Source: a virus (Duplodnaviria; Caudoviricetes). Taken from it: a DNA stretch of 64,000 nucleotides. Location of the stretch: the IMG/VR virus record IMGVR_UViG_3300014059_000005, positions 32,001 to 96,000 of that record; one strand, written 5' to 3'. Positions 28,901 through 64,000 of the stretch are shown piece by piece. Made by a program: the position numbers and the translations under genes. A model generated the notes under the pieces. It had not been told where the DNA came from and searched no databases. It was given only the letters and a program-made list of their open reading frames with translations. The first letter of the stretch is position 1. Every line of letters starts with the position of its first letter.

Positions 28901-30790
28901 CCAGACGGGTATGGTCCTCTGGGCAATGCCGAAGCCTACCAGGCAGCTATCGATCTATTGCATACTGCTACCAATGGGAAATACACAGGCCCCGAAGTTT
29001 CTCCGGATCGTCCATCTCCACGAGTAAACAAGAGCGAGAGCATAACGGCTCAGAAATTGGATAAGAGAGATACCCAGAAACTTCGGGATAAATATGAAGA
29101 AGGATCGGATCCGCGAAAAACCTATGAATCTGGATTGTCACCTTCCGGAACTAATAAGTATGTGGCCAGAAGAATGGCGGCTCTGGCAAGGGCTGTACAA
29201 GAAGGGGAGTTGCCGAATAACGAAGTTTTGAACAAGGTGCCCCGTTGGATCCAAGAAGCTGCTGATGATCCCTATGGCTATGGGGCATTTCGCACCGAGG
29301 AAAACTACCAGAACGCGATCAACCTCCTGCATACTGCCACCGGAGGAGCCTACAAAGGTCCAGAGGGAATCGAAAAGACCCCCCAGAAAGGCTCCGTGGA
29401 GGCAGCAAGAGAAACCACCACCGAGAAGCCCACCACCGACACCGAGGCTCTCACTCCCGAAGATGTGCAGCAACAGGAGGTCGAGCAGGAGACTGCTACT
29501 CCTAGCAACGAAACTCCGAAAACTGCATCGCAGAATTCGCAGCCACGACCCACACTGAATAATGCGTCATCTACGAGCCCGGCTGCCAAGAAACGTCTAC
29601 CAGATCCCCAGAAGGATTTCCCTGGGTTCATTCGGGACATCCAGTCGATTGCTGATGGTTTGGATAGGGGTTGGGGTCCCAACAAGGTATACATTTCCGA
29701 TGTCTACAACGCTTTGAAAGAGGCGAATCCTGGACTCACCCCAGAGTATTTCAAGTGGGCGCTCAAGGTTGCCAATCAGAGGGGATTGTTAAGTCTTAGC
29801 CGTGCCGATCTGGTTCAGGCCATGAATCCAGAAACGGTGAAAGCAAGCGAAATCAATATGAGTCCTGGAGCATCTGCTCACGAATCTACGGGATATGGTG
29901 CCACTACATCGCATTTCATCCTTTCCTCCTCTACGGATAGGTTGCAGCCAAAGGACATCGTAGACGGCGAGATGTATGAACAAGGGAGAGGTAATGAGAA
30001 GGGATCTCGCGAAGACATAGCATCGGTATATTCCGAGATGCAAAAGAAAGAGACGCAAGATACGGATAAACCACGGGTCGAGCCCAACAAGAGCAATCTG
30101 TCCAGATTCCGCAGGAATAAGGTAGGAGAAGGAGGTCTCAAGCCTCCCAGAATCGGTAGCAAGCAACCAGCAACGGCCCAGGAAGCTACTGGTGGAACTC
30201 AGGAGACCACCCCCGAACAGCAGTCACAGCAGCCTGTGGGCAATGAACCTGTTGCATCCGAAGCAGTCAGCAAACCCACGAGCCCCCGATCAGCAACCAA
30301 GACAACCTCCAAACCTTCTACCTCTACCGTCGCAAAAGCTTTCCGCGATCTGGACACCGAGAACTTCAACCAGGTCTCCCTGGACAAACTCCTGGCCAAG
30401 ACTGGATATACCCCAGAGCAACTCCACGGGGTGGTTCGGGATATGGTCAAGCGGGGACTGCTGACCACCCAGGGTCCAGAAGGGAGACATGGCCTGTCCC
30501 CCGCAGAGCGAGAGGCCATGATCCCACCTGGTGATGATTTCATGCAGGGGGTGATGTACGTCTCCGTGCCCACCGGCAAGGAGGAGGAATTCACCAGGAC
30601 TATCAAGGAAGGCAAGGAAACAGGTCCGACCAAGGGCGATGCCGTAGCGACTTCTGGGGAGGGGGTGGAATCCTTCGATTGGGGTTCTGAAGGATCGGCA
30701 CAACCAACCAGGAAAACAGAGACTCCCAAGCGAGCCGTTCGGGACAGGGAGACCGTTACCCCCAAACCTCCCAGAATCCGAAAGAAGTAA
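25997..30790 (+). CDS. Giant head-associated polyprotein: N-terminal 2H phosphoesterase (Acb1/gp57B-like), acidic linker, four helical repeats, two winged-helix-like domains
   Basis: PHVTIKYG and YHPHLTLAYV HxT pair; EETP repeats; four D..G(W/Y)G repeats; lies upstream of the prohead protease. Confidence 0.8.
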   Translation: MSMDAITLLGYLTKDLQQTQESPEAKVKYGYLGAILPPRLANQITDWVRKNIPNSVLGAGGRETTPHVTIKYGFIQSGPETLRAVQHYLSTVRPFPIKLLGVSLFKGNPDGDVLKIDVESQELRRLNREFSSRFRCHDKHPHYHPHLTLAYVDPRHSGMLVRRVPYFLPTEVMIDTLEFSTPEREKTHIHLSRGLKAMSYLNNLTGGALVGARVPERLQEKKRSKLLWERKALKSPQAGSRMHEEKQMSEEDVKASLIADVLASVLTPNPSGQKFLTGYLVKGYEEKKDSRGRRYCYDPDKKPSRIPCRVKDEAEKTGGGNQQTPQQQAPAQGAQGPAQDPTTQGQEAAQEAQQGAQEGPQDAPQGEQKQKRRYARRGSNKVTLDDARAKIAEVKAKIAELKGEPIPEELVNGLIQTLWDMTVVNLKALRKEVGARTAPRKPELIDKIKNVVAVPAEETPAEEPVAEPMAEETPTEETPTEETPEEVPAEEPVAEEVAEETPAEEVPVEETPAEPEPGSFEDDSDLTGEETEAAQTETPEAVEEVAPEATQTPEPTPEQSQETPQETPQEQIQEETQEQETPTAPREPRKLDRKEAAGLINKYGVGKPGANTPLHKEAPDVAILVDDIANAVADGERPAGKDVRKLMDVVEEAAYDPDGWGKLGNRETYEDLRDLVLTASKNRYEPTDPVEKSGEVTPRGETKPKGPVADRFATKATDIKPVDAARADEIAKKYGMRQGSKLRSRDTMMATAVEGLAQAVKQGGQANARLIEKVTEQLDAAARDETGYGVFGDQEAYEAIRDLAVQASGGAYEPVAPVEKSQPTTEERVDLQDDVFDEDVGDETEDIGSGNEKQDKLVREYSKREAEKEAELQRREQEAGIGSGTPEGREWLQYQHKGEKSPPQEASTIDAAAAKKLLKILRSNAETGIEPQTALGLRVMARQIAEGREVWDIGRKDLDNLIQQATDDPDGYGPLGNAEAYQAAIDLLHTATNGKYTGPEVSPDRPSPRVNKSESITAQKLDKRDTQKLRDKYEEGSDPRKTYESGLSPSGTNKYVARRMAALARAVQEGELPNNEVLNKVPRWIQEAADDPYGYGAFRTEENYQNAINLLHTATGGAYKGPEGIEKTPQKGSVEAARETTTEKPTTDTEALTPEDVQQQEVEQETATPSNETPKTASQNSQPRPTLNNASSTSPAAKKRLPDPQKDFPGFIRDIQSIADGLDRGWGPNKVYISDVYNALKEANPGLTPEYFKWALKVANQRGLLSLSRADLVQAMNPETVKASEINMSPGASAHESTGYGATTSHFILSSSTDRLQPKDIVDGEMYEQGRGNEKGSREDIASVYSEMQKKETQDTDKPRVEPNKSNLSRFRRNKVGEGGLKPPRIGSKQPATAQEATGGTQETTPEQQSQQPVGNEPVASEAVSKPTSPRSATKTTSKPSTSTVAKAFRDLDTENFNQVSLDKLLAKTGYTPEQLHGVVRDMVKRGLLTTQGPEGRHGLSPAEREAMIPPGDDFMQGVMYVSVPTGKEEEFTRTIKEGKETGPTKGDAVATSGEGVESFDWGSEGSAQPTRKTETPKRAVRDRETVTPKPPRIRKK
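27361..27745 (+). repeat. Low-complexity EETP/EEVP coding repeats
   Basis: GAGGAAACTCCGACT-like 15-bp units. Confidence 0.75.
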
Positions 30791-53283: not shown

Positions 53284-54576
53284 ATGCCTTCGGTGTTCTG
53301 GGGCAGACACATTGGCTACACCGAAGTGGAGGTCGATGGTGAGCTTACCGTCGTCCCCCAGGTGGAGGAATTACCGTTTGGTAACTGTGGCCTGGACAAG
53401 AGTTTGATCGGTGGTAGGCATGTCTCCTACACCCCTTATGATCCCGCCTTTATCGTCCCGATGGGTGTGCCCATTGTCGCTACACCCCTGGACTGTTGCG
53501 AGTCGATCTCCAAGGAGGATCCGCAGACCGAATGCTTCCTGGGCCTGGGCACCGCCTACGACAAGATGGTGGCGATGACCCTGAACGTGGAGAATTGCTA
53601 CGAGGCTCAGAGGCAGAGGGTGTCATTCATCTTCAACGGCGGGACATGGCCTCCCTTCGTCATCAACCCGGCATGTACCCCGCTCAACTATCCAGGAGCG
53701 GGGTACTGGGTGGGTGGTATGACGTTACGCGGTGGCGATGTGACATTCATCATCTCCTGCGAGCCAGGAGTAGGACCTGAATTCATACCCAACTTCCGTC
53801 TGTCCTGGACGGGATGCGATGAGGGTTGTGCAGAGGCCATCCCTGATTGTCTGGACCCACTACTCATCAACTTTGGCAACATAACACTCAGCAACTGCTG
53901 TGGCTGTCCTGATAGCACTGCCTCGGGGACGATCAACGCCTACATCTCCAGTGGTTGCAAGCAGACGGTGTTCGCCCGACACGTCAGTTACAACCGCCAG
54001 GGAGTTCCGATCGTTGCCAAGACCAGTAGTTGTCTATACAACGCCGAGCCCGTCGAGAGTTGTACGCTGGCCCAGTGTGGTCTGATCGCCACCATCGACT
54101 CGTCGGATGAATGTGCCTGCATGAGTGGTATCCATGTCCTGGAGTGGCTGCTCATCCGCTGGGAATCCCTTACCACCATGTGCGGTAACTCAGCTACCAT
54201 CCACCTGGACTGTACCGATCTGGGGATAATCGATCATGTTTCCTATGTGCAACTGGACCTGTCGATCGTCTGCGGTGCCGACACCACAGGGGGTGCATCG
54301 ATGGTGATTCCGGCCCTCGACCTGGTGAACCTGGACGTGACGTTCGAGGATGTTCCCATTTCGGGTCCGGGGTCTGGGTGCGCAGGGAACTGTCAGTGGC
54401 AGTGGGCTGAGATGCCCATGACCTGGTCGCAGATCACCTTTTGCTCTGGTGGCTGCTCCTGTGCCGAGCCCAGCTTCCCAGGAACGGTGGACGGGCAAAT
54501 CGCCTACACCAACTGCACAGGTGCTAGCACCGCCTGTTGCAATGGCTATATCGATGTGAGGATCACAAGAGAATGA
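53284..54576 (+). CDS. Cysteine-rich tail-associated protein with internal duplication
   Basis: Very high Cys content; repeated RHVSY...GVPIVA. Confidence 0.65.
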   Translation: MPSVFWGRHIGYTEVEVDGELTVVPQVEELPFGNCGLDKSLIGGRHVSYTPYDPAFIVPMGVPIVATPLDCCESISKEDPQTECFLGLGTAYDKMVAMTLNVENCYEAQRQRVSFIFNGGTWPPFVINPACTPLNYPGAGYWVGGMTLRGGDVTFIISCEPGVGPEFIPNFRLSWTGCDEGCAEAIPDCLDPLLINFGNITLSNCCGCPDSTASGTINAYISSGCKQTVFARHVSYNRQGVPIVAKTSSCLYNAEPVESCTLAQCGLIATIDSSDECACMSGIHVLEWLLIRWESLTTMCGNSATIHLDCTDLGIIDHVSYVQLDLSIVCGADTTGGASMVIPALDLVNLDVTFEDVPISGPGSGCAGNCQWQWAEMPMTWSQITFCSGGCSCAEPSFPGTVDGQIAYTNCTGASTACCNGYIDVRITRE

Positions 54577-55199
54577 GCACCAGTAAACAACATGAGGGCC
54601 TGGCCAGTCAGCCGAATCACGACTTTCGGCCTGAGCCTCCTTGCGAGTGCCCCGGACCTGGATTCTGCCAGCGATATCAGATCAAGCAGTTCGACCACCA
54701 CTGGCGACTGTGCTCGGGTAACTGTCTGCCGGAGCGCCCCTGCACCGAGGCGGTCTCCCAGGCCATGCGGCGGCAATGGCGAAAGAAACTGGAGGCCAAA
54801 CTCAAGGGCACCCCTGGACCCAACATTCTTACCAAGATCGCCAACCTTACCAGGGCTGTCACCCGGGGCGTGGCCAAGAACGGAGCCAGGGTCTTCCAGA
54901 AGGTCCCCCTGGAGGTCTATGAGGAGCGTAGACGGATCTGCGACTCTTGCGATGCCCGGAACCCAGAGAAAGATATTTGTACTCATCCCAAATGTGGTTG
55001 TGGTCTCAAGAGAAGGTTGGTGGCTGGAACATTATCCATGCTCGGCAAGCTAGAGGTATCGACGGAAAAGTGCCCCATGTTAAAATGGACGGAGTATACG
55101 GGACCCACGGAAACGGAGACCTTGCCAGGATCCCTGCCTGTGATCCCAGCCCCACCCAATACCCCGACCGAAACTCCACCGGAGACAGGACGTGCCTAG
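54573..55199 (+). CDS. Cys-rich zinc-binding protein
   Basis: CECPGPGFC...; R..IC.SC...C....CGC.L...K......CP..KW. Confidence 0.65.
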   Translation: MSTSKQHEGLASQPNHDFRPEPPCECPGPGFCQRYQIKQFDHHWRLCSGNCLPERPCTEAVSQAMRRQWRKKLEAKLKGTPGPNILTKIANLTRAVTRGVAKNGARVFQKVPLEVYEERRRICDSCDARNPEKDICTHPKCGCGLKRRLVAGTLSMLGKLEVSTEKCPMLKWTEYTGPTETETLPGSLPVIPAPPNTPTETPPETGRA

Positions 55200-55524
55200 C
55201 TACAGCGATTTCAGCATGGGGTACGTCGATGGCTCGCTCACCGTGGGCCTGTCTCCCCCGGACAATATCCAGGGGTGGTCGATCCGCTTCTCCATGATGA
55301 AGCGCAATGGCGGGACACCGTTTCTCTACGCCTATGCCGCTAGTGGCTACAACAACGTCTCCGGTATCCAGATCACGAATTTCACAATCGGTACGATGGT
55401 GGTCTCTCTACCTCAATCCTCGGTCTCGGGGCAAGATCCCGGGGCCTACTACTATGTCCTGGAACGAACCGACTCGGGTAGCGCAGGCCCATTGGTCCAG
55501 GGCTATCGGGTGATGTGGCCATGA
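55192..55524 (+). CDS. BppU-like/Ig-like virion protein
   Basis: I.GWSIRFS...G...V.L.......PGAYYY...RTDSG. Confidence 0.55.
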   Translation: MPSYSDFSMGYVDGSLTVGLSPPDNIQGWSIRFSMMKRNGGTPFLYAYAASGYNNVSGIQITNFTIGTMVVSLPQSSVSGQDPGAYYYVLERTDSGSAGPLVQGYRVMWP

Positions 55525-55838
55525 CCAGCGATGAATGGATCAGGTCTGGTGACTGGCAGGAGGTCAAGAGCACCAACGTCAAGGCGTACCGCTACCTTCG
55601 CAGGGAACGGATGCTCCAGGTTCAGTTCCTGGGGACCGCCAAGAAGATCCGGGAGCCGGTCTACAAGGTTCACGATGTCACCGACATGGTAGCCAGGACG
55701 TTCTTCCTGGTGGATAGCAAGGGGAAGTTCTATGCTCGGTACATCAAGGATTCCTACCACGTCACCGGGCCATTCCACTCACTACTACGAACCCTGGCGA
55801 TCGATACCCATAAGTTGTTCGAGCAGGAAGATTTCTAG
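55521..55838 (+). CDS. KTSC-domain protein
   Basis: VKSTNV...Y...LQVQF...Y...V......F....SKGKFYARYIK. Confidence 0.75.
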   Translation: MTSDEWIRSGDWQEVKSTNVKAYRYLRRERMLQVQFLGTAKKIREPVYKVHDVTDMVARTFFLVDSKGKFYARYIKDSYHVTGPFHSLLRTLAIDTHKLFEQEDF

Positions 55839-55867
55839 GAAGGAGAAAGGATCACGGATAGGACTTT

Positions 55868-56122
55868 TCATGGTGATGTGGGCGTGCTAGATTGTGAGGG
55901 GTTGAAAGGGGATAAGGGGCTGGGATCTTCGGGTCCTGGCCCCTTATTATTTGTCTTTCTGAGGACAAGACGAAATCCGTAGTAGTCGGAGAGTGCCCTT
56001 GACACATTGTAGTTGCGATAGCAAGAGTAGGCGTTCGATGGTTGATAGGATAACGCACCGCCTCGGAGCAACCGGAACGGTCTCTGAGTGAGAATCGGTT
56101 TGGGTCTTGCGATAAGGATCAT
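55868..56122 (-). CDS. Variable CLec/FGE mini-cassette N (C-terminally extended)
   Basis: MILIARPKPI...LLRGGALS...YSCYR...YGFRLVLRK. Confidence 0.75.
   Translation of the reverse strand: MILIARPKPILTQRPFRLLRGGALSYQPSNAYSCYRNYNVSRALSDYYGFRLVLRKTNNKGPGPEDPSPLSPFNPSQSSTPTSP
55912..55952. terminator. Hairpin terminator at the convergence of the two transcription units
   Basis: ATAAGGGGCTGGGATC-TTCG-GGTCCTGGCCCCTTAT, 16-bp stem with cUUCGg loop, followed by TATTT. Confidence 0.75.
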
Positions 56123-56295
56123 GGTATTCTCTTGCGGAGAATTATCCGGAAGCCCAAGAAGTCGATCCGGTCCGTAGGCCCGGCCCAGTCACGGTTCGCC
56201 GACCGACAAGATAGACTGCGGTAGTACCAGCCACCGCCCTGTAGCACCCGGTAGGAGCCATCGATGATCGGTCTAGATCTAGCAATCAGGATCAT
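56119..56295 (-). CDS. Variable CLec/FGE mini-cassette M
   Basis: MILIARSRPIIDGSYRVLQGGGWYYRSLSCRSANRDWAGPTDRIDFLGFRIILRKRIP; ATGA overlaps. Confidence 0.8.
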   Translation of the reverse strand: MILIARSRPIIDGSYRVLQGGGWYYRSLSCRSANRDWAGPTDRIDFLGFRIILRKRIP

Positions 56296-56483
56296 TTATC
56301 CCTCTTTCTGAGGATTACTCGAAAGCCCAGACCACCACAGCGAAAACTTTCCGGGTTCCAGATTCTATGCCACGAACTGGATCGCCAGACCATGCTCTGG
56401 AAGCCGCCACCTCGGATGGTATGGGAAACACACTGGGAAGCGATCAGGGACACCAGGGTCCCTGATCGCTTCACCAGAATCAC
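56292..56483 (-). CDS. Variable CLec/FGE mini-cassette L
   Basis: GTG start overlapping the scaffold stop; TIRGGGF...LGFRVILRKRDK. Confidence 0.75.
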   Translation of the reverse strand: MILVKRSGTLVSLIASQCVSHTIRGGGFQSMVWRSSSWHRIWNPESFRCGGLGFRVILRKRDK

Positions 56484-57298
56484 TGGGAGCCTCCGGACTC
56501 TCCAGACTCCCGAAGGGCCTTTTCTGCCGCCTCGACTTCCTTTTTGTACCTCTGGGCATCATAGAGGCAGGCACACCACTCCCAGACGTTGCCGTGCATG
56601 TCGTAGAGGCCAAAGGCATTACAGGGATAGGATCCCACCGGGGTGGTCCGGTTGATCTTCTCATCGAAGTTGGCCATGTCGTGGGTCAGAGTGCTGCCAA
56701 AGGTGTAGGCGCTCCGGGTGCCGCCTCGACAGGAATACTCCCACTCGTACTCGGTGGGTAGTTCGTAGTAGTATCCCTTGGCGATCTCCTCGGGCAGTTC
56801 GGAGAGTTTCTTGCAATACTCCTGGGCGTCGTGCCAGGACACATTTTCCACGGGGTGGCCGGGGTGCTTGAAGGACGTGGATGGATTGGTGCTCATCACC
56901 TTCTCCCACTCCCTCTGGGTAACGGGAAAGGTCCCCATGTACAGACCTTCCATCTGCACCAGGTGCTGGGGACCTTCATCGGAATGACGATGGGGCTCAC
57001 TGTCCGGAGAGCCCATGACATTGATGCCGGGAGGAGTGACCTTGAATTCCATGCCGATCGAGTTGACGATCCTTGGCATGACCACCGGGACCTTTTCCAG
57101 GAGCATGGCCTGGATCTGCTTCTCCACCTCGGGATCGTAGGAATCCGGATCGAGTTGGTTCAGGGTCATCCGTAGGAGTCGTGCGGATTGCTCCCGACCT
57201 TCTTCGATCAGGGCATCGGTGAGGGCAAACCACCCCGTGGTGTCATTGGGGTCGATGGTGAGAGCGTGCAGGATCGAATCGGTGTCGGTGAAGGCCAT
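56480..57298 (-). CDS. TIGR02996-like domain + FGE-sulfatase (CLec fold) scaffold lacking the C-terminal variable segment
   Basis: ILHALTIDPNDTTGWFALTDALIEEG; NSIGMEF..PPG...MGS; PVTQ; PVENVSW.DA; LPTEYEWEY.CRGG; NAFGLYDMHGNVWEWC, then a charged helix and stop; own AAGGA RBS. Confidence 0.9.
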   Translation of the reverse strand: MAFTDTDSILHALTIDPNDTTGWFALTDALIEEGREQSARLLRMTLNQLDPDSYDPEVEKQIQAMLLEKVPVVMPRIVNSIGMEFKVTPPGINVMGSPDSEPHRHSDEGPQHLVQMEGLYMGTFPVTQREWEKVMSTNPSTSFKHPGHPVENVSWHDAQEYCKKLSELPEEIAKGYYYELPTEYEWEYSCRGGTRSAYTFGSTLTHDMANFDEKINRTTPVGSYPCNAFGLYDMHGNVWEWCACLYDAQRYKKEVEAAEKALRESGESGGSQ

Positions 57299-57487
57299 AG
57301 TGGACTTTCCTTGTGTAAGGGACTTACGGAGAACACGAAAACCAAAGAAGTTGTACCAGTTTGCTGGTTCACAGGCGTTTCGGTACGTCAACCGGCAATA
57401 CATCGCAAGAGATAGCCAGCAACCACCTCGAAATATCCGATATGGGGAATCGGGGTATGTTGTTCGCAAGGTAGTGGTGAGAATCAT
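57299..57487 (-). CDS. Variable mini-cassette K, fused in frame to the scaffold N-terminus
   Basis: MILTTTLRTTYPDSPYRIFRGGCWLSLAMYCRLTYRNACEPANWYNFFGFRVLRKSLTQGKST, no stop before ATG 57298. Confidence 0.75.
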
Positions 57488-57663
57488 TTCTCTTTTTTCT
57501 TTCTGAGAGCAACCCGGAAGCCCATGTCGTTGTATCGTAATGTTGGTCTGTACCCGATGCGGTACGACGACCTGTAGTTCCGGCCGACGCAGCCCCAGCA
57601 ACCACCCCGGCTCATCCAGAGGGAACCCTGAATGATCGGCCCAGGTTTAGCAATGAGGATCAT
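57484..57663 (-). CDS. Variable CLec/FGE mini-cassette J
   Basis: MILIAKPGPIIQGSLWMSRGGCWGCVGRNYRSSYRIGYRPTLRYNDMGFRVALRKKKEK. Confidence 0.8.
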   Translation of the reverse strand: MILIAKPGPIIQGSLWMSRGGCWGCVGRNYRSSYRIGYRPTLRYNDMGFRVALRKKKEK

Positions 57664-57836
57664 CAGCCCCTCTTTCTGAGGATTGCCCGGAAGCCCAGGA
57701 GGTTGTCCCGGAGCATCGGCACGAGCCTGAGGCAGCGTGCCGACCGGCAGTTCTGGCCGGGGCTGTACCAGCAGCCGCCCCGGATCACCTGGAAGGAGCC
57801 CTGGAGGATCGGTCCAGGTCTAGCGATCAGGATCAT
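57663..57836 (-). CDS. Variable CLec/FGE mini-cassette I
   Basis: MILIARPGPILQGSFQVIRGGCWYSPGQNCRSARCLRLVPMLRDNLLGFRAILRKRG. Confidence 0.8.
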   Translation of the reverse strand: MILIARPGPILQGSFQVIRGGCWYSPGQNCRSARCLRLVPMLRDNLLGFRAILRKRG

Positions 57837-58009
57837 CTCGACCTCTTTCTCAGGATCACCCGGAAGCCCAGATCGTGGTCCCGTTTCGGCGGCACGACCC
57901 TGCGGCGGTCCGCCGACCGGCAGTACAGGCCGTGACCGTTCCAGCAGCCGCCCCGGAACACCCGGTAGGAGCCCTGAATAATTGATTTAGGTTTAGCAAT
58001 CAGGATCAT
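57833..58009 (-). CDS. Variable CLec/FGE mini-cassette H
   Basis: MILIAKPKSIIQGSYRVFRGGCWNGHGLYCRSADRRRVVPPKRDHDLGFRVILRKRSR. Confidence 0.8.
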   Translation of the reverse strand: MILIAKPKSIIQGSYRVFRGGCWNGHGLYCRSADRRRVVPPKRDHDLGFRVILRKRSR

Positions 58010-58191
58010 TTCGATCTCTTTCTGAGGATTGCTCGGAATCCCAGGCCGTTTTCCCGATACGTTGGTGTATACCTGTGGCGGTACACCGACCGGCAGAACT
58101 GGCCGATGTTGACCCAGCAACCACCCCGGATCGTCTGGAACACCCGGTAGGAGCCCAGGGTGATTGATCCAGGTTTAGCAATCCGGATCAT
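58006..58191 (-). CDS. Variable CLec/FGE mini-cassette G
   Basis: MIRIAKPGSITLGSYRVFQTIRGGCWVNIGQFCRSVYRHRYTPTYRENGLGFRAILRKRSK. Confidence 0.8.
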   Translation of the reverse strand: MIRIAKPGSITLGSYRVFQTIRGGCWVNIGQFCRSVYRHRYTPTYRENGLGFRAILRKRSK

Positions 58192-58373
58192 TAGCCTCTC
58201 TTTCTGAGGATTACCCGGAAGCCCAGATCGTCGTACCGGAACGCTGGTCTGTATCCGATGCGGTACGACGACCTATAGTTCTCGCCGACGCAGGCCCAAC
58301 TACCGCCCCGGATCGCCCAGATCACCCAGTGGGAGCCCAGGGTGATAGGTCTAGGTCTAGCAATCAGGATCAT
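58191..58373 (-). CDS. Variable CLec/FGE mini-cassette F
   Basis: MILIARPRPITLGSHWVIWAIRGGSWACVGENYRSSYRIGYRPAFRYDDLGFRVILRKRG; GAGGAG RBS. Confidence 0.8.
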   Translation of the reverse strand: MILIARPRPITLGSHWVIWAIRGGSWACVGENYRSSYRIGYRPAFRYDDLGFRVILRKRG

Positions 58374-58450
58374 TTGTCTCTCCTCTTTCCTTGCTGTGTC
58401 ACAACTATGCACCAGGAATTCGGAAAGTCAAATGAAAATGAAGAGTTCGG

Positions 58451-58780
58451 CTACAGCTTCCTGCGGTTGCGAAGTTCCGCATCCCCACCACAGAAGCGGC
58501 ACAGCTTGTGCTTCGTGGCGCAATTGGTACAGAGCACATCCACACAGGTGTTGCCATAGTGCATCTCCGTCTTGCACATTCCACACAGGGCTACGGTACA
58601 CATGGCACCACCGATACGGCCCCGCATGTAGTGGCAAACCCGGCACATGCATTTCTTCTTGCGGATCTCCAGATCGGGATCTTCGTAGCACTTTTTGACA
58701 GAATCGTAATATGCCTGTGAATAATTCGTCGCTCTCAAAACGGCACAGAGATCCCAGGGTTTGTAGATTGGCTCTCGCAT
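58451..58780 (-). CDS. Cys-rich zinc-finger protein
   Basis: CRVC, CGMC, CTNC, CRFC pairs. Confidence 0.65.
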   Translation of the reverse strand: MREPIYKPWDLCAVLRATNYSQAYYDSVKKCYEDPDLEIRKKKCMCRVCHYMRGRIGGAMCTVALCGMCKTEMHYGNTCVDVLCTNCATKHKLCRFCGGDAELRNRRKL

Positions 58781-59382
58781 GATAATAAACTCTTGCGAAT
58801 CTTGTTCAGGGCGTTGACATGGGACTGACTCACTGCTGATCGGGACACTCCCAGGCCATCGGCAATGTCGCACAGCCGTCTACCCTTGAGGTAGTGTTCT
58901 TCCAGTACGAATCGCTGATAGGGCTTCAGGACGGACAGGAGGGACTCACAAAGATCGGCATCGTCCAGGGTTCGCTTCCAGGAGCAATCGATGACAGGGA
59001 GGGCCTTGGGGTCATAGGGGACTCGGGTGGGCAATGGATAGACGACCTTGGCCTCGAAACTGCTCTTGCTCATGGGATGGTGTAGACTGCGAATATATCG
59101 CTGTATCTGGTTGCGGACACTCCTCCAGGCGTAAGTGCCGAAGCGGACCCCATGCCTGGAGTCATAGTTCCTGGCACATCTCCAGAGTGCCACATCCGCT
59201 ACCTGGACCAGTTCCTCGTAATCGAAGCACATCCCCAGGAATCTACCGTATTGGAGTGCCTTCTTGGCCAGGATTCTGGAGACTCCACGGTTCTCGGACC
59301 AGAGTAGTTCGATCCGGAGTCTCTCTTCTTCGGCGGACTTGCTCGTGGATTCTTTCGTGGACTTGCTCGTGGATTTGCTCAT
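58735..59382 (-). CDS. Sigma-70 family sigma factor (second copy)
   Basis: EELVQVADVALWRCARNYDSRHGVRFGTYAW; LCDIADGLGVSRSAVSQSHVNALNKIR. Confidence 0.85.
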   Translation of the reverse strand: MSKSTSKSTKESTSKSAEEERLRIELLWSENRGVSRILAKKALQYGRFLGMCFDYEELVQVADVALWRCARNYDSRHGVRFGTYAWRSVRNQIQRYIRSLHHPMSKSSFEAKVVYPLPTRVPYDPKALPVIDCSWKRTLDDADLCESLLSVLKPYQRFVLEEHYLKGRRLCDIADGLGVSRSAVSQSHVNALNKIRKSLLSCESQSTNPGISVPF

Positions 59383-59401
59383 GACCGTGTACCCGAATCC
59401 C

Positions 59402-59434
59402 AAAGAGAGGGGGACACAACCGCCCCCTCTCTTT
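59402..59434. terminator. Hairpin/terminator
   Basis: AAAGAGAGGGGG-N9-CCCCCTCTCTTT perfect 12-bp stem. Confidence 0.65.
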
Positions 59435-59442
59435 CGCGAAGG

Positions 59443-59625
59443 TCACTTCTTGCTGGGTTTGGGTGCCAGTAACTTGGCGAGCAATTCCAGGGCCTTGTGT
59501 GTGGGCAATTCGGACAGGATCTTCCAGGATACGGCGTGGACTCGGGACACGTCCGCCACACCGATCTTGGTCTTCTCGGTGTCCACCTCGCTGGCCACGG
59601 CATTCTTGAACTCGGTCGGGGTCAT
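59443..59625 (-). CDS. Small basic helical protein (possibly HU-like N-terminal helices)
   Basis: MTPTEFKNAVASEV....IGVADVSRV; ATGA coupled. Confidence 0.55.
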   Translation of the reverse strand: MTPTEFKNAVASEVDTEKTKIGVADVSRVHAVSWKILSELPTHKALELLAKLLAPKPSKK

Positions 59626-60272
59626 CGGTCTATCTCGTGAGATTCAGAAGATATCTCCGGGGTCACATATTCGGTCCCGGAGTCCACAGGTCGGGTACGG
59701 ACCACGCTGCCCGTTACCAGCCTACGATTGTGGGTCACGAACAGGATCTGGAGTCCTAATTCTCTGGAGAGAGTCTCCAGGAGGAACCTCACTCGATCCT
59801 GGTATTCCTCGGAGACGAAGCGAAAGGGCTCGTCCAGGGCCAGGAATGTTCGTCTCCTGGTTCTGGATAATAACAGACAGGCCAGCCTCAGGGCAAAGGC
59901 ACTGACATCGATTACACCACCTCCACAGGACCCCAAGGGGTCCTCGACCTCTCTACCATGATCGAGAAGGGTGAGTGTAGCCTCGGTGCGGCCACGCTTG
60001 TCCTCGAAATCGATTCGCAGGGAATAGGTATCCTTGCCGAATACTGCTTCCAGGCATCTGGAGGCTATCTCGGAGACTCTACCGTGGCAGGCCTCCTGAA
60101 CCTGAACCGCAACTTCCTGGGCGATGGAGAGAGACTTTTTCAGGTGTTCCTGCTCCTGGATCAATTCCTGGGATCTGGAGGACTCACTGGAAGTATTCTT
60201 GATGGCAACCTGGTATTCCATCAGGAGAGGTCGCAATTGATTCCGATAACGATCCAGGGCGGTAGGCGTCAT
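59622..60272 (-). CDS. SbcC/Rad50-like ATPase, C-terminal half
   Basis: Coiled coil, then signature SCGGG, Walker B LALDEPF, H-loop LFVTHN. Confidence 0.85.
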   Translation of the reverse strand: MTPTALDRYRNQLRPLLMEYQVAIKNTSSESSRSQELIQEQEHLKKSLSIAQEVAVQVQEACHGRVSEIASRCLEAVFGKDTYSLRIDFEDKRGRTEATLTLLDHGREVEDPLGSCGGGVIDVSAFALRLACLLLSRTRRRTFLALDEPFRFVSEEYQDRVRFLLETLSRELGLQILFVTHNRRLVTGSVVRTRPVDSGTEYVTPEISSESHEIDR

Positions 60273-60445
60273 GAGGTTTTCTTTCTGAGGATTACCCGGA
60301 AGTCCAGATCGCTGAACCGGAACGTCGGCTCGAGCCTGCCACGGTACGCCGACCGGCAGTTCCGGCCGCTGCTGCTCCAGCCGCCGCCCTGGATCACCCG
60401 GCCAGAGCCCTGTAGGATCGGCCTAGGTCTAGCGATGAGGATCAT
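60269..60445 (-). CDS. Variable CLec/FGE mini-cassette E
   Basis: MILIARPRPILQGSGRVIQGGGWSSSGRNCRSAYRGRLEPTFRFSDLDFRVILRKKTS. Confidence 0.8.
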   Translation of the reverse strand: MILIARPRPILQGSGRVIQGGGWSSSGRNCRSAYRGRLEPTFRFSDLDFRVILRKKTS

Positions 60446-60618
60446 GGTGTTCTCTTTCTCAGGATTACCCGGAAGCCCAGGCCGTGGTTCCGAACCGCCG
60501 GCACGTACCTGTGGCAGCGTGCCGACCGGCAGTTCTGGCCGGGGCTGTACCAGCCACCGCCCCGGAACACTGAGAGGGAGCCCTGGATAATTGATCTAGG
60601 CCTAGCAATCAGGATCAT
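60442..60618 (-). CDS. Variable CLec/FGE mini-cassette D
   Basis: MILIARPRSIIQGSLSVFRGGGWYSPGQNCRSARCHRYVPAVRNHGLGFRVILRKRTP. Confidence 0.8.
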   Translation of the reverse strand: MILIARPRSIIQGSLSVFRGGGWYSPGQNCRSARCHRYVPAVRNHGLGFRVILRKRTP

Positions 60619-60791
60619 TTGTCTCTCTTTCTGAGGATTACTCGAAAGCCCCGGCTAAGATAGCGGAACGACGCAAAATATCTATAGCGGCGTGTCAATC
60701 CACAGGTCCCATAGCAGCTACGCCAACCACCACCCCGATACACTGGTTCATTTCCTTGAATGCCTGGTTTGGGTCTAACGATCTGGATCAT
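60615..60791 (-). CDS. Variable CLec/FGE mini-cassette C
   Basis: MIQIVRPKPGIQGNEPVYRGGGWRSCYGTCGLTRRYRYFASFRYLSRGFRVILRKRDK. Confidence 0.8.
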   Translation of the reverse strand: MIQIVRPKPGIQGNEPVYRGGGWRSCYGTCGLTRRYRYFASFRYLSRGFRVILRKRDK

Positions 60792-60862
60792 CTGTCTTTC
60801 TTTCTGAGGATTGCCCGGAAGGAGCCCCAGACAATCGGTCTGGGTTTGTTGATCCGGATCAT
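60788..60862 (-). CDS. Empty mini-cassette B (variable core absent)
   Basis: MIRINKPRPIVWGSFRAILRKKDR, with both ATGA overlaps retained. Confidence 0.7.
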   Translation of the reverse strand: MIRINKPRPIVWGSFRAILRKKDR

Positions 60863-61041
60863 TTCATATTCTTTTTCAGGATCAACCGCAATCCAAAGTT
60901 GTTGAACGTGGTTTGTGGAATGTACCCAACACGCCTGGCCGCTCGGCAGGGCCATTCATAGTTGAACCAGCCGGCCCCCCGAACCATGAGTTCTCGGCCC
61001 CGAAAGATCGGTCTAGGTCTAGCGATCAGGATCACGATCAT
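60859..61041 (-). CDS. Variable CLec/FGE mini-cassette A
   Basis: MIVILIARPRPIFRGRELMVRGAGWFNYEWPCRAARRVGYIPQTTFNNFGLRLILKKNMK. Confidence 0.8.
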   Translation of the reverse strand: MIVILIARPRPIFRGRELMVRGAGWFNYEWPCRAARRVGYIPQTTFNNFGLRLILKKNMK

Positions 61042-61430
61042 TTCCCCCGAAGTCTGGGTCCATATTCTTCCTCGAACCTCTGATATTCATCATCGATCGA
61101 ATCTTGCTGATGTCGTAATTGCGCAGCAAGTCTCGTCAATTCCTCCCGGGCGTCCTCCAGGGAGTTACAACCGAACTGAGTTTTCAATCTACGAAGGACT
61201 TCCTGGAGGGCTCCCTGGACCCGATCTCTTTGTCGGGTTACGGTCTCTAGTTGCTCCTGGATAGCACGGTACTCCTCTACCGTGATCCGCTTCGTGGAGA
61301 CCCCCGGTCGATCGCCGTCAGGAGGATCTCCTCCACCCTGGGGTCTTCCGGTTGGATTCGCAGTCTTTGTCTCACGGCCTCCTGATACGACGGTGGTGCG
61401 TCGGGAGCCCTTTTCAGTGTTTCCAGACAT
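61038..61430 (-). CDS. Small coiled-coil protein of the SbcCD operon (start uncertain)
   Basis: RQRDRVQGALQEVLRRLKTQFGCNSLEDAREEL coiled coil. Confidence 0.6.
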   Translation of the reverse strand: MSGNTEKGSRRTTVVSGGRETKTANPTGRPQGGGDPPDGDRPGVSTKRITVEEYRAIQEQLETVTRQRDRVQGALQEVLRRLKTQFGCNSLEDAREELTRLAAQLRHQQDSIDDEYQRFEEEYGPRLRGK

Positions 61431-62245
61431 AGATCGATCTCACCCCCCAGAACCTTCTTTGGTTTTCTGTGATCCTCGGTCAGTACATCCCTGGAGCAAT
61501 CCAGGTAGTGCGGTTCTATGGAATCATCAGAATGATAGATCCACACCCTGGGCTCGTGATCCTTCTGGTCCACGGCCAGCCGCATGAGCGAGCCGCAGTT
61601 GACCACTGGGGGGACCTTCTTCCTGGCGGCAAAGGGTATATGATTGTCCCCCACGAACACCGCGTTGTAGCCCTGGACCATACTCCGCAAGGCATCGAGG
61701 GAGTGGGACTCTGGGGCATCCTTGTATCCCGTACTGTATCCAGCAGTCCTGGTCCAGGTGTAGCGATGTACCACTGCTACTTCCTGGAGCAAGGACACCC
61801 CGCCTGTCAGTGGTTCCGGGTCCTGCCTCCAGGGGAATCCCCAGAGCCTCAGAGGGTGTGCCCCGGGAATTTCCACTGGTTGTCCAAAATGCAGAGGGAT
61901 GACCCTACCAGACAGCACCAGAGTGTGAAACGACGATCTGTGGATTTGTGCGTAACTATGATTGGGTAGGTCGTGATTACCCGCCACGGAGTAGAGTGTC
62001 GGCAGGTACTCCAGGGCGAAGTTCACCAATTCCGGGGGCGAAATGGGAATATCGAATATATCCCCACAGCAGATTACTGGCACCCGGAGAGTGTCAGCAA
62101 GGTTGCGAACCTGGAGGAGAACTCTCTTCTGAGCCTCGTACCAGCTGGGCTCCGACTGTCTGCACACAGGAGGCGTATGCGACAGATGGATATCGGCCAG
62201 GAATATCGCCACCGGAACTACAGGGTAGACCGGCAGAGCGGACAT
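61277..62245 (-). CDS. SbcD/Mre11-like metallophosphoesterase nuclease
   Basis: ADIH, CGDIFD, AGNHD, VVH, GDNH, NCGS motifs. Confidence 0.9.
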   Translation of the reverse strand: MSALPVYPVVPVAIFLADIHLSHTPPVCRQSEPSWYEAQKRVLLQVRNLADTLRVPVICCGDIFDIPISPPELVNFALEYLPTLYSVAGNHDLPNHSYAQIHRSSFHTLVLSGRVIPLHFGQPVEIPGAHPLRLWGFPWRQDPEPLTGGVSLLQEVAVVHRYTWTRTAGYSTGYKDAPESHSLDALRSMVQGYNAVFVGDNHIPFAARKKVPPVVNCGSLMRLAVDQKDHEPRVWIYHSDDSIEPHYLDCSRDVLTEDHRKPKKVLGGEIDLCLETLKRAPDAPPSYQEAVRQRLRIQPEDPRVEEILLTAIDRGSPRSGSR

Positions 62246-63135
62246 ATCTTCACTGCTTGCAGGCGGGAGTTCAGGGAGTCGATTCTCTCCTGGAGGCTTT
62301 CCTGCTCCTGGAGTAGTCCTTCTCCTTGGCCACATAGACTCTCCAACTCGTTTTTGGTATGGATGTACTCCTGGACCAGGAGTACACGATCACGAAGATC
62401 GGTCAGGGGACCGGACACGGTATCGAGAAACCCCAGGAGGTTTCGGAACTGCTCTGCGTCCCGAACAGCGTCTTCCAGGAATCGATGATGCTCGGTCTGG
62501 GTGTCCAGGGCCTCCTGCCGAGCCTGCAAGGCATCCAGGACGTCACAGGCCCCCGACACCCAGGATAGGGATTCGGAAGCCTCCTGAGCCTCCTGGAGAC
62601 GATTGCTGGACTCCAGGAGCGAGGATTTGTTCTGGCGGATTTGCTGGTTGATGTCGGTCAGGGTCTCGTCGATGGACCCCAGATCGATGATCCGGTCCAG
62701 TTCCCTGGCCAGTTGCCCCGGTGTCAGGTGGAACCAGAAGGAGGGGTCATGCTGGAGAGCAAAATTATCCTCACATAGATTCAGAATCTTTGCTACGGGC
62801 TCGGGGGCCTCGTTGGTCTTGAGGGCGTCCAGTCGCTCGCCATCGATCTCGTAGTAGTTACCTGATTTTCCATTCCCTGACTTTCCGTTGCTGGTCTTTC
62901 CCCGGTGACGGATAACTGTGTGTCCGTCGATACGAAGGGTCCCACGAACGAAGTCCGTGCCCTTGGTCCTAAAGGCATCCCCACTGGGTTTGTTATGGGC
63001 GATCCAGCGCAGGAGGCGGATGAGGCTGCTCTTGCCGGAATTGGTAGGCCCCACGATACAGGTGACGTGGGGATCCAGGTCCAGGGTCCATAAGGTGTGG
63101 GCCTGAAAGTTCTCCAGGGTGATGCTTTCTAACAA
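62218..63135 (-). CDS. SbcC/Rad50-like ATPase, N-terminal half ending at the zinc hook
   Basis: LENFQAH, Walker A GPTNSGKS, Q-loop QHD, coiled coil, terminal CPLC. Confidence 0.85.
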   Translation of the reverse strand: MLESITLENFQAHTLWTLDLDPHVTCIVGPTNSGKSSLIRLLRWIAHNKPSGDAFRTKGTDFVRGTLRIDGHTVIRHRGKTSNGKSGNGKSGNYYEIDGERLDALKTNEAPEPVAKILNLCEDNFALQHDPSFWFHLTPGQLARELDRIIDLGSIDETLTDINQQIRQNKSSLLESSNRLQEAQEASESLSWVSGACDVLDALQARQEALDTQTEHHRFLEDAVRDAEQFRNLLGFLDTVSGPLTDLRDRVLLVQEYIHTKNELESLCGQGEGLLQEQESLQERIDSLNSRLQAVKICPLCRSTL

Positions 63136-63137
63136 TA

Positions 63138-63887
63138 CTAGGCCCCCCAGCGAGCACGACGAACCAGAGGCTGTGCCCCCACGCCCAGCATCTCCCAGTC
63201 CTTTTTGGAGGCCTGGGCCTGTTCTTCGGCCCACTTGCACAGATACTCTGCCTGCTTGCTCTGGTTGAGTCCGTGAGCCTGGTAGCACAGGGCTACCGTG
63301 GCCTGGAACAGTTCCAGAGATTCATCCCGATCGCCATAGTAGACCAGATCCTTGATACGGCCCTCGATGGTCTGGACGGTAGGCTGGGGCTGGATCCTCT
63401 CCTGGATATCTTCGAGGATCTCCTTGGGATCGAAGACGAAGTCATCTGGTTCGGCATAGCCATCTTTGGGAAAGGAATCGGGCCAGCGCTTGTGGGCATT
63501 GGCGGTATCGGCAATATCATTATTGCCGTAGGCTTCCCGGGTGTCGGTATTCCAGGGGTTGCCCCTGGTGGGGACATAGAGTCTGAGTTTCTTGCCGTCC
63601 CAGTAGATGATGAAGTAGACCGGATGCTCCCAGTCTCCCCCAGCACGACAGCCCAGGATCTGGAGTCCGTTGGGGAGGACGCGATAGCCCAGGAGATCCT
63701 TGGGAGGGGTGTGATTCTCCTGATGCTCGAAGTTCTCGAAGTCGAATCTTACCTTGAGGTCGAAACTCAATCGCTCGCGGATCAGGTTGGAGTCCAGGTA
63801 GGAGTGTTGTCCATCCTGGGAGTAGAGCCTTCCGACGATCTTCTTGCGGAACTCCTCGGGAGAGATGATCGCGAAGAACCGGGACAT
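63138..63887 (-). CDS. Hypothetical protein
   Basis: 249-aa ORF with AGGAG RBS; AGGDWEHPVYFIIYWDGKKLRLYVP..GNPWN. Confidence 0.7.
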   Translation of the reverse strand: MSRFFAIISPEEFRKKIVGRLYSQDGQHSYLDSNLIRERLSFDLKVRFDFENFEHQENHTPPKDLLGYRVLPNGLQILGCRAGGDWEHPVYFIIYWDGKKLRLYVPTRGNPWNTDTREAYGNNDIADTANAHKRWPDSFPKDGYAEPDDFVFDPKEILEDIQERIQPQPTVQTIEGRIKDLVYYGDRDESLELFQATVALCYQAHGLNQSKQAEYLCKWAEEQAQASKKDWEMLGVGAQPLVRRARWGA

Positions 63888-64000
63888 GAGGGCTCCTGTG
63901 GGAGAGAGGGATTCAAGATGCCTGGGGAATGTCTTGTTTGGTTATTGGCTTGCCCATCTTCCTGGCGATCTCGTAGATACTCCTGGGCTCGCACTTACCA

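Follow-up and report, generated by a model that had tools for sequence, protein, structure and literature searches.

A truncated FGE-sulfatase gene and a library of variable C-terminal mini-genes in a tailed-phage genome

Core gene and cassette arrays

The DNA analysed here (the window; 64,000 nucleotides) comprises bases 32001-96000 of a 139,665-bp IMG/VR virus record (IMGVR_UViG_3300014059_000005; Caudoviricetes), which was rated 100% complete by CheckV. The subject is a set of small minus-strand genes, termed cassettes A to N, that lie in three clusters between positions 55868 and 61041 together with one truncated gene of the FGE-sulfatase (C-type-lectin) fold, termed the core. All 14 small open reading frames (ORFs) described in a first-pass annotation of the window, with their coordinates and overlapping junctions, were found again. 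Several details were corrected: cassette K lacks a stop codon and reads in frame into the core gene, cassette L starts with GTG, cassette B is a 24-residue deletion derivative and cassette N reads through a hairpin. Three related lineages were compared: the window phage with L004; L001, L002 and L003; and L009 to L012. The features of the locus are as follows.

56480-57298, minus strand: core ('scaffold') gene, 272 residues; FGE-sulfatase domain, own AAGGA Shine-Dalgarno site and ATG
56483-56572, minus strand: core C-terminal tail (approximately residues 243-272), predicted to be helical
60859-61041, minus strand: cassette A, 58-60 residues, cluster 1; start overlaps the stop of the probable coiled-coil ORF 61038-61430
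60788-60862, minus strand: cassette B, 24 residues, cluster 1; constant N-end joined to constant C-end, variable region deleted
60615-60791, minus strand: cassette C, 58 residues, cluster 1
60442-60618, minus strand: cassette D, 58 residues, cluster 1
60269-60445, minus strand: cassette E, 58 residues, cluster 1; stop overlaps the start of the gene for the SbcC/Rad50 C-terminal half
58191-58373, minus strand: cassette F, 60 residues, first of cluster 2; own GGAAAGAGGAG Shine-Dalgarno site, promoter-like site at 58404-58431
58006-58191, minus strand: cassette G, 61 residues, cluster 2; fused with H in L004
57833-58009, minus strand: cassette H, 58 residues, cluster 2; partner in the complex prediction
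57663-57836, minus strand: cassette I, 57 residues, cluster 2; 5' half of the variable region replaced in patches in L004
57484-57663, minus strand: cassette J, 59 residues, cluster 2; identical in L004
57299-57487, minus strand: cassette K, degenerate, cluster 2; reads into the core in frame without a stop codon
56292-56483, minus strand: cassette L, first after the core, cluster 3; GTG start overlapping the core stop (GTGA), longer atypical N-terminus
56119-56295, minus strand: cassette M, 58 residues, cluster 3; PF03781 positions 211-254, 23.3 bits
55868-56122, minus strand: cassette N, 84 residues, cluster 3, last gene of the leftward operon; extended C-terminus runs through a terminator-like hairpin

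Most junctions between cassettes are ATGA overlaps, with TAATG at F/G, TGATG at I/J and GTGA between the core and L. ATGA overlaps also link cluster 1 to its upstream gene (61038-61430) and to its downstream gene (59622-60272). The 14 mini-genes first reported are all present in the window and proved to belong to a larger library: 40 copies were identified genome-wide (14 in the window and 26 outside it), in approximately ten clusters, each on the strand of the local genes. When a cassette protein profile was run against the six-frame translation, each copy was matched at E values of 1e-9 to 3e-32, far beyond chance, and the 41 DNA matches of a nucleotide profile (nhmmer) fell on the same 40 loci and on nothing else. 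The encoded peptides are strongly basic, with 9-15 lysine and arginine residues versus 0-5 aspartate and glutamate residues in nearly all copies. Decayed cassettes were noted at genome positions 108269-108445 (full-length DNA with a disrupted N-terminus) and 109249-109368 (truncated to 39 residues) and at window positions 60788-60862 (B, the 24-residue deletion form), and birth-and-death turnover is therefore indicated.

The cassettes carry the marks of translated genes. The start codon is ATG in 34 of 39 copies and GTG or TTG in the others, and stop codons are present in nearly all copies. Shine-Dalgarno-like sites lie 6-10 nt upstream of the starts; the codons for the C-terminal LRKR (AGAAAGAG) sit 6 nt ahead of the next ATG, and the first cassette of most clusters has a GGAG/GAGG-type site of its own. 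At invariant residues (Ile2, the Gly, Arg and Leu of GFRVIL and the Arg of RGG) codon positions 1 and 2 have zero entropy, while position 3 carries 1-1.7 bits, a pattern suggestive of selection on the protein rather than on a DNA site. The ratio of nonsynonymous to synonymous divergence (dN/dS), pooled over cassettes, is lowest in the framework and C-end (0.24), intermediate in the N-end (0.34) and highest at the variable positions (0.62); for orthologous cassette pairs of L001 and L009 (n = 3) it is 0.29. The constant ends and framework residues are thus under purifying selection at the protein level, as their third-position variation also indicates.

The core is the single FGE core gene in the whole 139,665-bp genome. 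It consists of divergent TIGR02996-like N-terminal helices, the FGE-sulfatase domain and a helical tail, with the stop approximately 30 residues past GNVWEWC. The match to PF03781 covers positions 7-208 of 255 (E = 3.5e-38, 132 bits; gathering cut-off 23.3). The TIGR02996 profile gave 18.5 bits, compared with an NCBIfam cut-off of 29.05, and the N-terminus aligns full-length with homologues that are named as TIGR02996 family by JGI. The tail stands in place of the usual linker before RVxRGG, and its pattern DxYDAxRYxKE..A.KA is kept in all three lineages. For the core, dN/dS was 0.085 at a dS of 0.63 (window versus L004) and 0.066 (L001 versus L009). Judged from these comparisons, the truncated core is not a pseudogene, and its truncation is ancient, conserved and under strong purifying selection.

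Cassette K and the core together form one ORF, 56480-57487, of 335 residues. The two share a frame in the window, L004 and L001, but K is frameshifted in L009. The sequence of K departs widely from the cassette consensus, and the core is equipped with an ATG and a ribosome-binding site of its own; K is most likely a decaying cassette.

Seven of ten cassettes tested match PF03781 from position 206 or 211 to position 254 or 255 with 12.3-23.3 bits, one of them at the cut-off of 23.3 and six below it; the other three gave no match. On these profile alignments the core and the cassettes cover complementary parts of one FGE/C-type-lectin domain (positions 7-208 versus 206/211-254/255), which bears out the earlier suggestion that the scaffold is an FGE-sulfatase gene lacking the segment that the cassettes carry. 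Together the core (272 residues) and a cassette (58 residues) are as long as intact TIGR02996-FGE homologues (320-340 residues). The nearest of these are proteins with TIGR02996 and FGE-sulfatase domains from Gemmataceae and other Planctomycetes (for example P0079 and P0147), with 40-47% identity to the core over approximately 90% of its length. The cassette N-end aligns to the DPxGPxEGS linker of the intact homologues and the rest aligns to their last 45 residues. Intact proteins of this Planctomycete type are the likely source of the phage genes; from the summed length and the alignment to the linker and the C-terminal residues, the phage seems to have acquired a gene of host type, split it at the linker and duplicated the end many times over. 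A 105-residue metagenomic protein (P0039) was also found that passes from a TIGR02996-like N-terminus straight into one C-terminal FGE unit, with the intervening FGE core absent.

Catalytic FGE is characterized by a pair of catalytic cysteines in the C-terminal segment (C336/C341 in human FGE). The cassette consensus has at most one conserved cysteine (that of CRSA, in 21 of 32 copies), and the positions preceding it are hypervariable. The system was therefore not classed as an enzyme.

In the AlphaFold2 (AF2) model the core domain has predicted local distance difference test (pLDDT) values above 90, and a Foldseek search with the core model returned PvdO (PDB entry 5HHA), human FGE (1Y1H) and TvpA (2Y3C) with a probability of 1.00 and target template-modelling scores of 0.48-0.54. 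Prediction of the complex of the core with cassette H gave a score of 0.96, compared with 0.02 for the best of three controls. Of 80 solved complexes, 58 attained the 0.96 mark, as did two of 110 mismatched pairs; the counts apply only roughly here, as our own alignments were used. The three complex runs share at least 90% of contacts, and the pLDDT of the partner is at least 85. Multimer modelling, which had been proposed for the scaffold with each cassette, is thus favourable for the one cassette modelled, and the model speaks for the cassette fitting as the missing piece rather than for binding. Modelled alone with the same alignment, cassette H has a mean pLDDT of 46 and no secondary structure, and the possibility that a cassette is a self-contained mini-lectin is therefore not supported.

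Variable positions, related phages and turnover

In TvpA-type proteins the ligand-binding face is diversified by diversity-generating retroelements (DGRs; PMC5758913). The hypervariable positions of the cassettes were compared with two template-like sequences that the homology search had returned. Each of the 13 adenine-coded asparagine positions of these sequences falls on a cassette column of more than 2.5 bits (13/13; Fisher p = 1e-6), and the C-terminal 58 residues of the intact Planctomycete homologues vary at the same positions as the cassettes. By this alignment the hypervariable positions coincide with the DGR-variable ligand-binding face, in agreement with the earlier identification of the cassette segments as the DGR-type variable region of this fold.

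A DGR in the present genome was ruled out by the absence of a reverse transcriptase and of a template repeat, by differences not attributable to adenine mutagenesis and by the wrong polarity of change. No match to the reverse-transcriptase family PF00078 was obtained at E values up to 1 in a six-frame search of the 139,665-bp genome. No template repeat was found among the 41 nhmmer matches, all of which are coding cassettes with an adenine fraction of 0.14-0.36 (at most 0.29 except in one 33-nt fragment of cassette B). Copies differ by C/T at the third positions of twofold codons (TTC/TTT, TGC/TGT and ATC/ATT), changes beyond the reach of adenine mutagenesis from one template. Codons ending in a pyrimidine (NNY) make up 70% of the variable codons versus 56% of the background, and lysine is nearly absent; this bias may stem either from an old DGR origin or from selection favouring Tyr-, Ser-, Asn- and Asp-rich binding sites.

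The arrangement recurs in all three lineages: the core stops approximately 30 residues past GNVWEWC, a helical tail is present and a cassette follows directly. The cores are 57-94% identical. L001 has at least 34 cassettes within 12 kb, and L009 has at least 22 within 11.8 kb. Cassettes at position L, the first after the core, form a distinct class with a longer N-end and are orthologous between L001 and L009. A fused full-length core-cassette form was not seen in the three lineages examined, which argues against the swapping of a cassette into the core gene as the main mode. The first-pass annotation had offered two possibilities, namely that the cassettes complete one scaffold in trans or that they swap in by recombination; recombination between cassettes does occur, and it is swapping into the core as the main mode that lost ground.

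The closest comparison is with L004, which is 98-100% identical to the window in background (flanking DNA 57310-59800). An exact 173-bp unit deletion in L004 fuses G and H into one mosaic unit. The 5' half of cassette I shows a patchy multi-nucleotide replacement that includes third positions and whole codons, while its adenine-containing 3' half beside the constant end is unchanged between the two phages; this polarity is opposite to that of DGR homing. Downstream of the core the cassettes are completely replaced, including that at position L. The deletion and the patchy replacement therefore indicate unequal crossing-over and gene conversion. The core (56480-57298 in the window, 2837-3655 in L004) was also observed to have a dS of 0.63 despite its 98-100% identical flanks, so recombination must have exchanged the core itself. 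Turnover is fast: three reciprocal-best pairs were found among 34 L001 and 21 L009 cassettes. Searches of IMG/VR with the cassette profile and with the core gave no relatives besides the phage's own record. The exact junction pattern gave one chance match each in species genomes and in JGI metagenomes, and neither of these has cassettes.

A second split FGE locus was found on marine contigs (L013 7181-9490, and also L014, L015 and L016; Tara and JGI, 49% GC). Here an FGE core of 152-153 residues (Pfam positions 32-193) ends eight residues past VWEW and is adjoined by 5-7 overlapping small genes, each encoding 2-3 C-terminal units, with the array upstream of the core. The small genes have constant ends (MTTEIV... 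and ...KESKDDN), and the gene set differs between related contigs. The system belongs to a different sequence family and has no TIGR02996 domain; on these characters the marine phage lineage represents an unrelated, independent second case of the split design. Among IMG/VR relatives of the marine core, 165 stretches were matched and 78 loci were inspected, all of which are intact single-ORF FGE proteins. Among phage FGE genes the split design is thus uncommon, yet it recurs. Proteins consisting only of 4-11 tandem units of approximately 45 residues (RVxRGG...CRSAxR...GFR) with short linkers and no FGE core in the chain were also observed (P0209, P0200, P0201, P0198 and P0233).

Proposed assembly and its alternatives

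The interpretation starts from what was observed: the anatomy of the locus, the complementarity of core and cassettes, their conservation, the selection on them and the mode of their turnover. We propose a split lectin-fold binder in which one core is completed in trans by separately made variable ends, with the library renewed by recombination, and assign this reading a probability of roughly 0.55. One gene would supply the invariant core, with the TIGR02996-like N-terminus and roughly the first four fifths of the domain, and some 40 mini-genes would supply peptides of 57-63 residues corresponding to its last fifth. Each peptide would contribute two framework strands (RVxRGG and GFRV) and the loops making up the ligand-binding face. 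The peptides would be translated separately through translational coupling at the stop/start overlaps, the codons for the C-terminal LRKR doubling as the ribosome-binding site of the next cassette. As the models suggest, each peptide would be disordered alone and would fold on docking into the core, so that one core could display many alternative binding faces at once in a cell. The repertoire would be renewed by unequal crossing-over and patchy gene conversion and not by a retroelement. An intracellular role in phage-host conflict is a guess, drawn from the position among early and DNA-metabolism genes and from the proposal that FGE-type domains serve as invader sensors in bacterial conflict systems (PMC7159879, PMC10907252).

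A more far-reaching version is that the locus is a germline-encoded, antibody-like viral repertoire. The core would be completed non-covalently by any of approximately 40 co-expressed peptides, giving dozens of specificities for the early neutralization of host defence proteins or other targets; these would be reshuffled by gene conversion, and the design would have arisen or spread in at least two unrelated lineages. We hold this version tentatively and at distinctly less than even odds.

The cassettes might instead be a DNA-level reservoir, as in pilS or vls, from which segments are copied into the core-coupled position L, so that only that peptide pairs with the core and the others are translated incidentally. 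The 173-bp unit deletion in L004, the patches in cassette I and the full replacement downstream of the core in a 98-100% identical background would all be expected, and the distinct longer-N-end class at position L, orthologous between L001 and L009, would be accounted for. Silent cassettes, however, need none of the ATG or GTG starts, ribosome-binding sites, stops and protein-level selection that the copies keep; moreover, cluster 1 lies within a chain of translationally coupled genes and the marine array is upstream of its core, and this explanation seems unlikely to us. We regard as similarly improbable that the peptides act on host proteins, either as dominant-negative pieces that disturb the folding or assembly of the host's many TIGR02996-FGE paralogues or as free basic peptides, with the phage core as a separate decoy. 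Such a role could be read into the 40-47% identity to host-type TIGR02996-FGE proteins of Gemmataceae and other Planctomycetes, the sensor function proposed for FGE-type domains in the two papers cited above, the very basic composition of the cassettes (9-15 Lys and Arg versus 0-5 Asp and Glu) and the existence of tandem unit-only proteins. A folded intact host domain, however, offers no vacant place for an additional C-terminal piece, and a truncated core with a matching breakpoint is conserved under strong selection wherever cassettes occur, in two unrelated lineages, which is hard to explain if the two are not partners.

The NNY excess (70% versus 56%) and the near absence of lysine are the repertoire expected from AAC-derived codons and, together with the coincidence of the hypervariable positions with DGR-variable positions, would fit cassettes that are the variable repeats of a DGR supplied in trans by a host or a co-infecting element. 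No reverse transcriptase (PF00078, E up to 1) was found in the complete genome, none of the 41 DNA matches is A-rich and all are coding cassettes, so that there is no template, and the C/T third-position differences go beyond adenine mutagenesis. In cassette I the changes, among them third positions and whole codons, are confined to the 5' half, a polarity opposite to that of DGR homing; the NNY bias would also follow from an abundance of Tyr, Ser, Asn, Asp and Gly in binding sites. A DGR acting in trans is consequently given a very low probability. Lower still is our estimate for a selfish or neutral repeat family, in which a duplicated gene end spreads by recombination with no function of its own. 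Dispersal over approximately ten sites, fast turnover (three reciprocal-best pairs among 34 versus 21 in L001 and L009) and decayed copies (B, the 39-residue truncated form and the frameshifted form) are features of such a family; purifying selection at the protein level on ends and framework, the retention of starts, stops and ribosome-binding sites in nearly all copies and maintenance alongside a selected truncated core in divergent lineages are not.

Several points weigh against the split binder itself. Many L001 and L009 cassettes have no RGG/CRSA framework yet keep the constant ends, and the constant ends may therefore serve another purpose. The unit may work without a core, as suggested by the marine proteins with 2-3 units each and by the tandem-only P0209, P0200 and P0201. 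The favourable complex prediction may reflect memory in the model of intact solved FGE domains, given that intact structures of the domain divided between the two chains are numerous. There is a stoichiometry problem, with forty peptides competing for one core, and the cassettes are spread over several operons far from the core. Finally, K might complete the core in cis, as it is in frame in two of the three lineages. This candidate, a circular permutation, was set aside: AF2 left residues 1-64, a part covered by only three sequences, at pLDDT below 40, which speaks neither for nor against it, and the frame is broken in L009.

In Neisseria pilE/pilS and Borrelia vlsE, silent cassettes are untranslated and act only once they have been copied into one expression site. 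The phage arrays resemble them in consisting of incomplete gene copies between conserved flanks, in undergoing segmental gene conversion and in gaining and losing units, but each phage copy has a start, a stop, a ribosome-binding site and protein-level selection. In the R64 shufflon (PilV) and the Mu and P1 tail-fibre genes (S/S'), alternative C-terminal ends are joined at the DNA level by a recombinase acting with inverted repeats, one at a time per genome. The likeness is a constant N-terminal part with one of several C-terminal specificity segments; the phage, by contrast, has direct repeats, and its cassettes showed no inverted-repeat architecture; its parts would be joined non-covalently, and every variant would be present simultaneously. 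The marine contigs L013-L016 resemble the window in having an FGE core truncated past VWEW and an adjoining array of C-terminal units with constant ends and variable content beside Mre11/SbcC, and differ in having 2-3 units per small protein, an upstream array, no TIGR02996 domain and a different sequence family. The intact Planctomycete TIGR02996 and FGE-sulfatase proteins have the same domain order, and their C-terminal 58 residues align with the cassettes. These are single polypeptides, whereas the phage version is cut at the linker, its core has gained the helical tail and its cassettes have gained the ends MILIARP... and ...ILRKR.

The FGE-type C-type-lectin variable proteins of DGRs (Treponema denticola TvpA, PDB entry 2Y3C; category 'b' targets, PMC5758913) have the same fold and the same diversified C-terminal segment and positions. 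In the phage, by contrast, the variable segment is a separate gene in approximately 40 germline copies and the core gene ends before it; there is no reverse transcriptase or template repeat, and variation arises by recombination and ordinary divergence. A literature search for split FGE genes or mini-gene arrays found none and returned only papers on DGRs and conflict systems; likewise, no described system that stores binding diversity as a split core and a mini-gene library was found in the literature. A survey of jumbo phages reported no FGE-type domains in them (PMC7824862).

If assembly occurs as proposed, it would constitute a third route to binding diversity, beside targeted hypermutation (DGRs) and DNA rearrangement (shufflons and silent cassettes). 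Many small genes would store the diversity, and fragment complementation between proteins would bring it out, in a fold already known to withstand massive variation. Standard annotation is blind to the system: most cassettes are below gene-calling size and the core resembles a truncated gene. The locus would offer an experimental handle on what FGE-type 'sensor' domains recognize in phage-host conflict, and possibly, as a natural two-piece binder scaffold, a template for engineering.

Neighbouring genes and other features

Plus-strand genes, including those for tail-fibre and virion proteins, extend to approximately position 55,800, and minus-strand genes run from 55,868 onward. The minus-strand block encodes a sigma factor, an SbcD/Mre11-like phosphoesterase and the two halves of an SbcC/Rad50-like ATPase. 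The neighbouring features are as follows.

62218-63288, minus strand: N-terminal half of the SbcC/Rad50-like ATPase (AAA_23, SMC_N)
61277-62335, minus strand: SbcD/Mre11-like phosphoesterase, between the SbcC/Rad50-like halves
61038-61430, minus strand: 130-residue ORF with no family match, probably coiled-coil, between the SbcC/Rad50-like halves
59622-60272, minus strand: C-terminal half of the SbcC/Rad50-like ATPase (C-terminal part of AAA_21)
55911-55948: terminator-like hairpin with a 17-bp stem, between the convergent plus-strand and minus-strand gene blocks

The two SbcC/Rad50-like halves also flank the five cassettes of cluster 1 (59622-63288, minus strand), and the marine phage FGE array likewise adjoins Mre11/SbcC. 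An Rfam search of 54000-64000 found no known RNA families. Positions 58735-59403 and 58451-58873 (minus strand) encode an extracytoplasmic function (ECF)-type sigma factor (TIGR02937, E = 2e-16) followed by a cysteine-rich ORF of 140 residues with no family match; this pair is also found among cassettes in L001 and L004. The sigma-factor gene contains a 24-nt tandem duplication at 59326-59373. Two large plus-strand genes in the window are unrelated to the split system: 22604-24463 encodes a 619-residue protein with several methyltransferase matches, and 25997-30790 encodes a 1597-residue protein with an RNA-ligase-like stretch.

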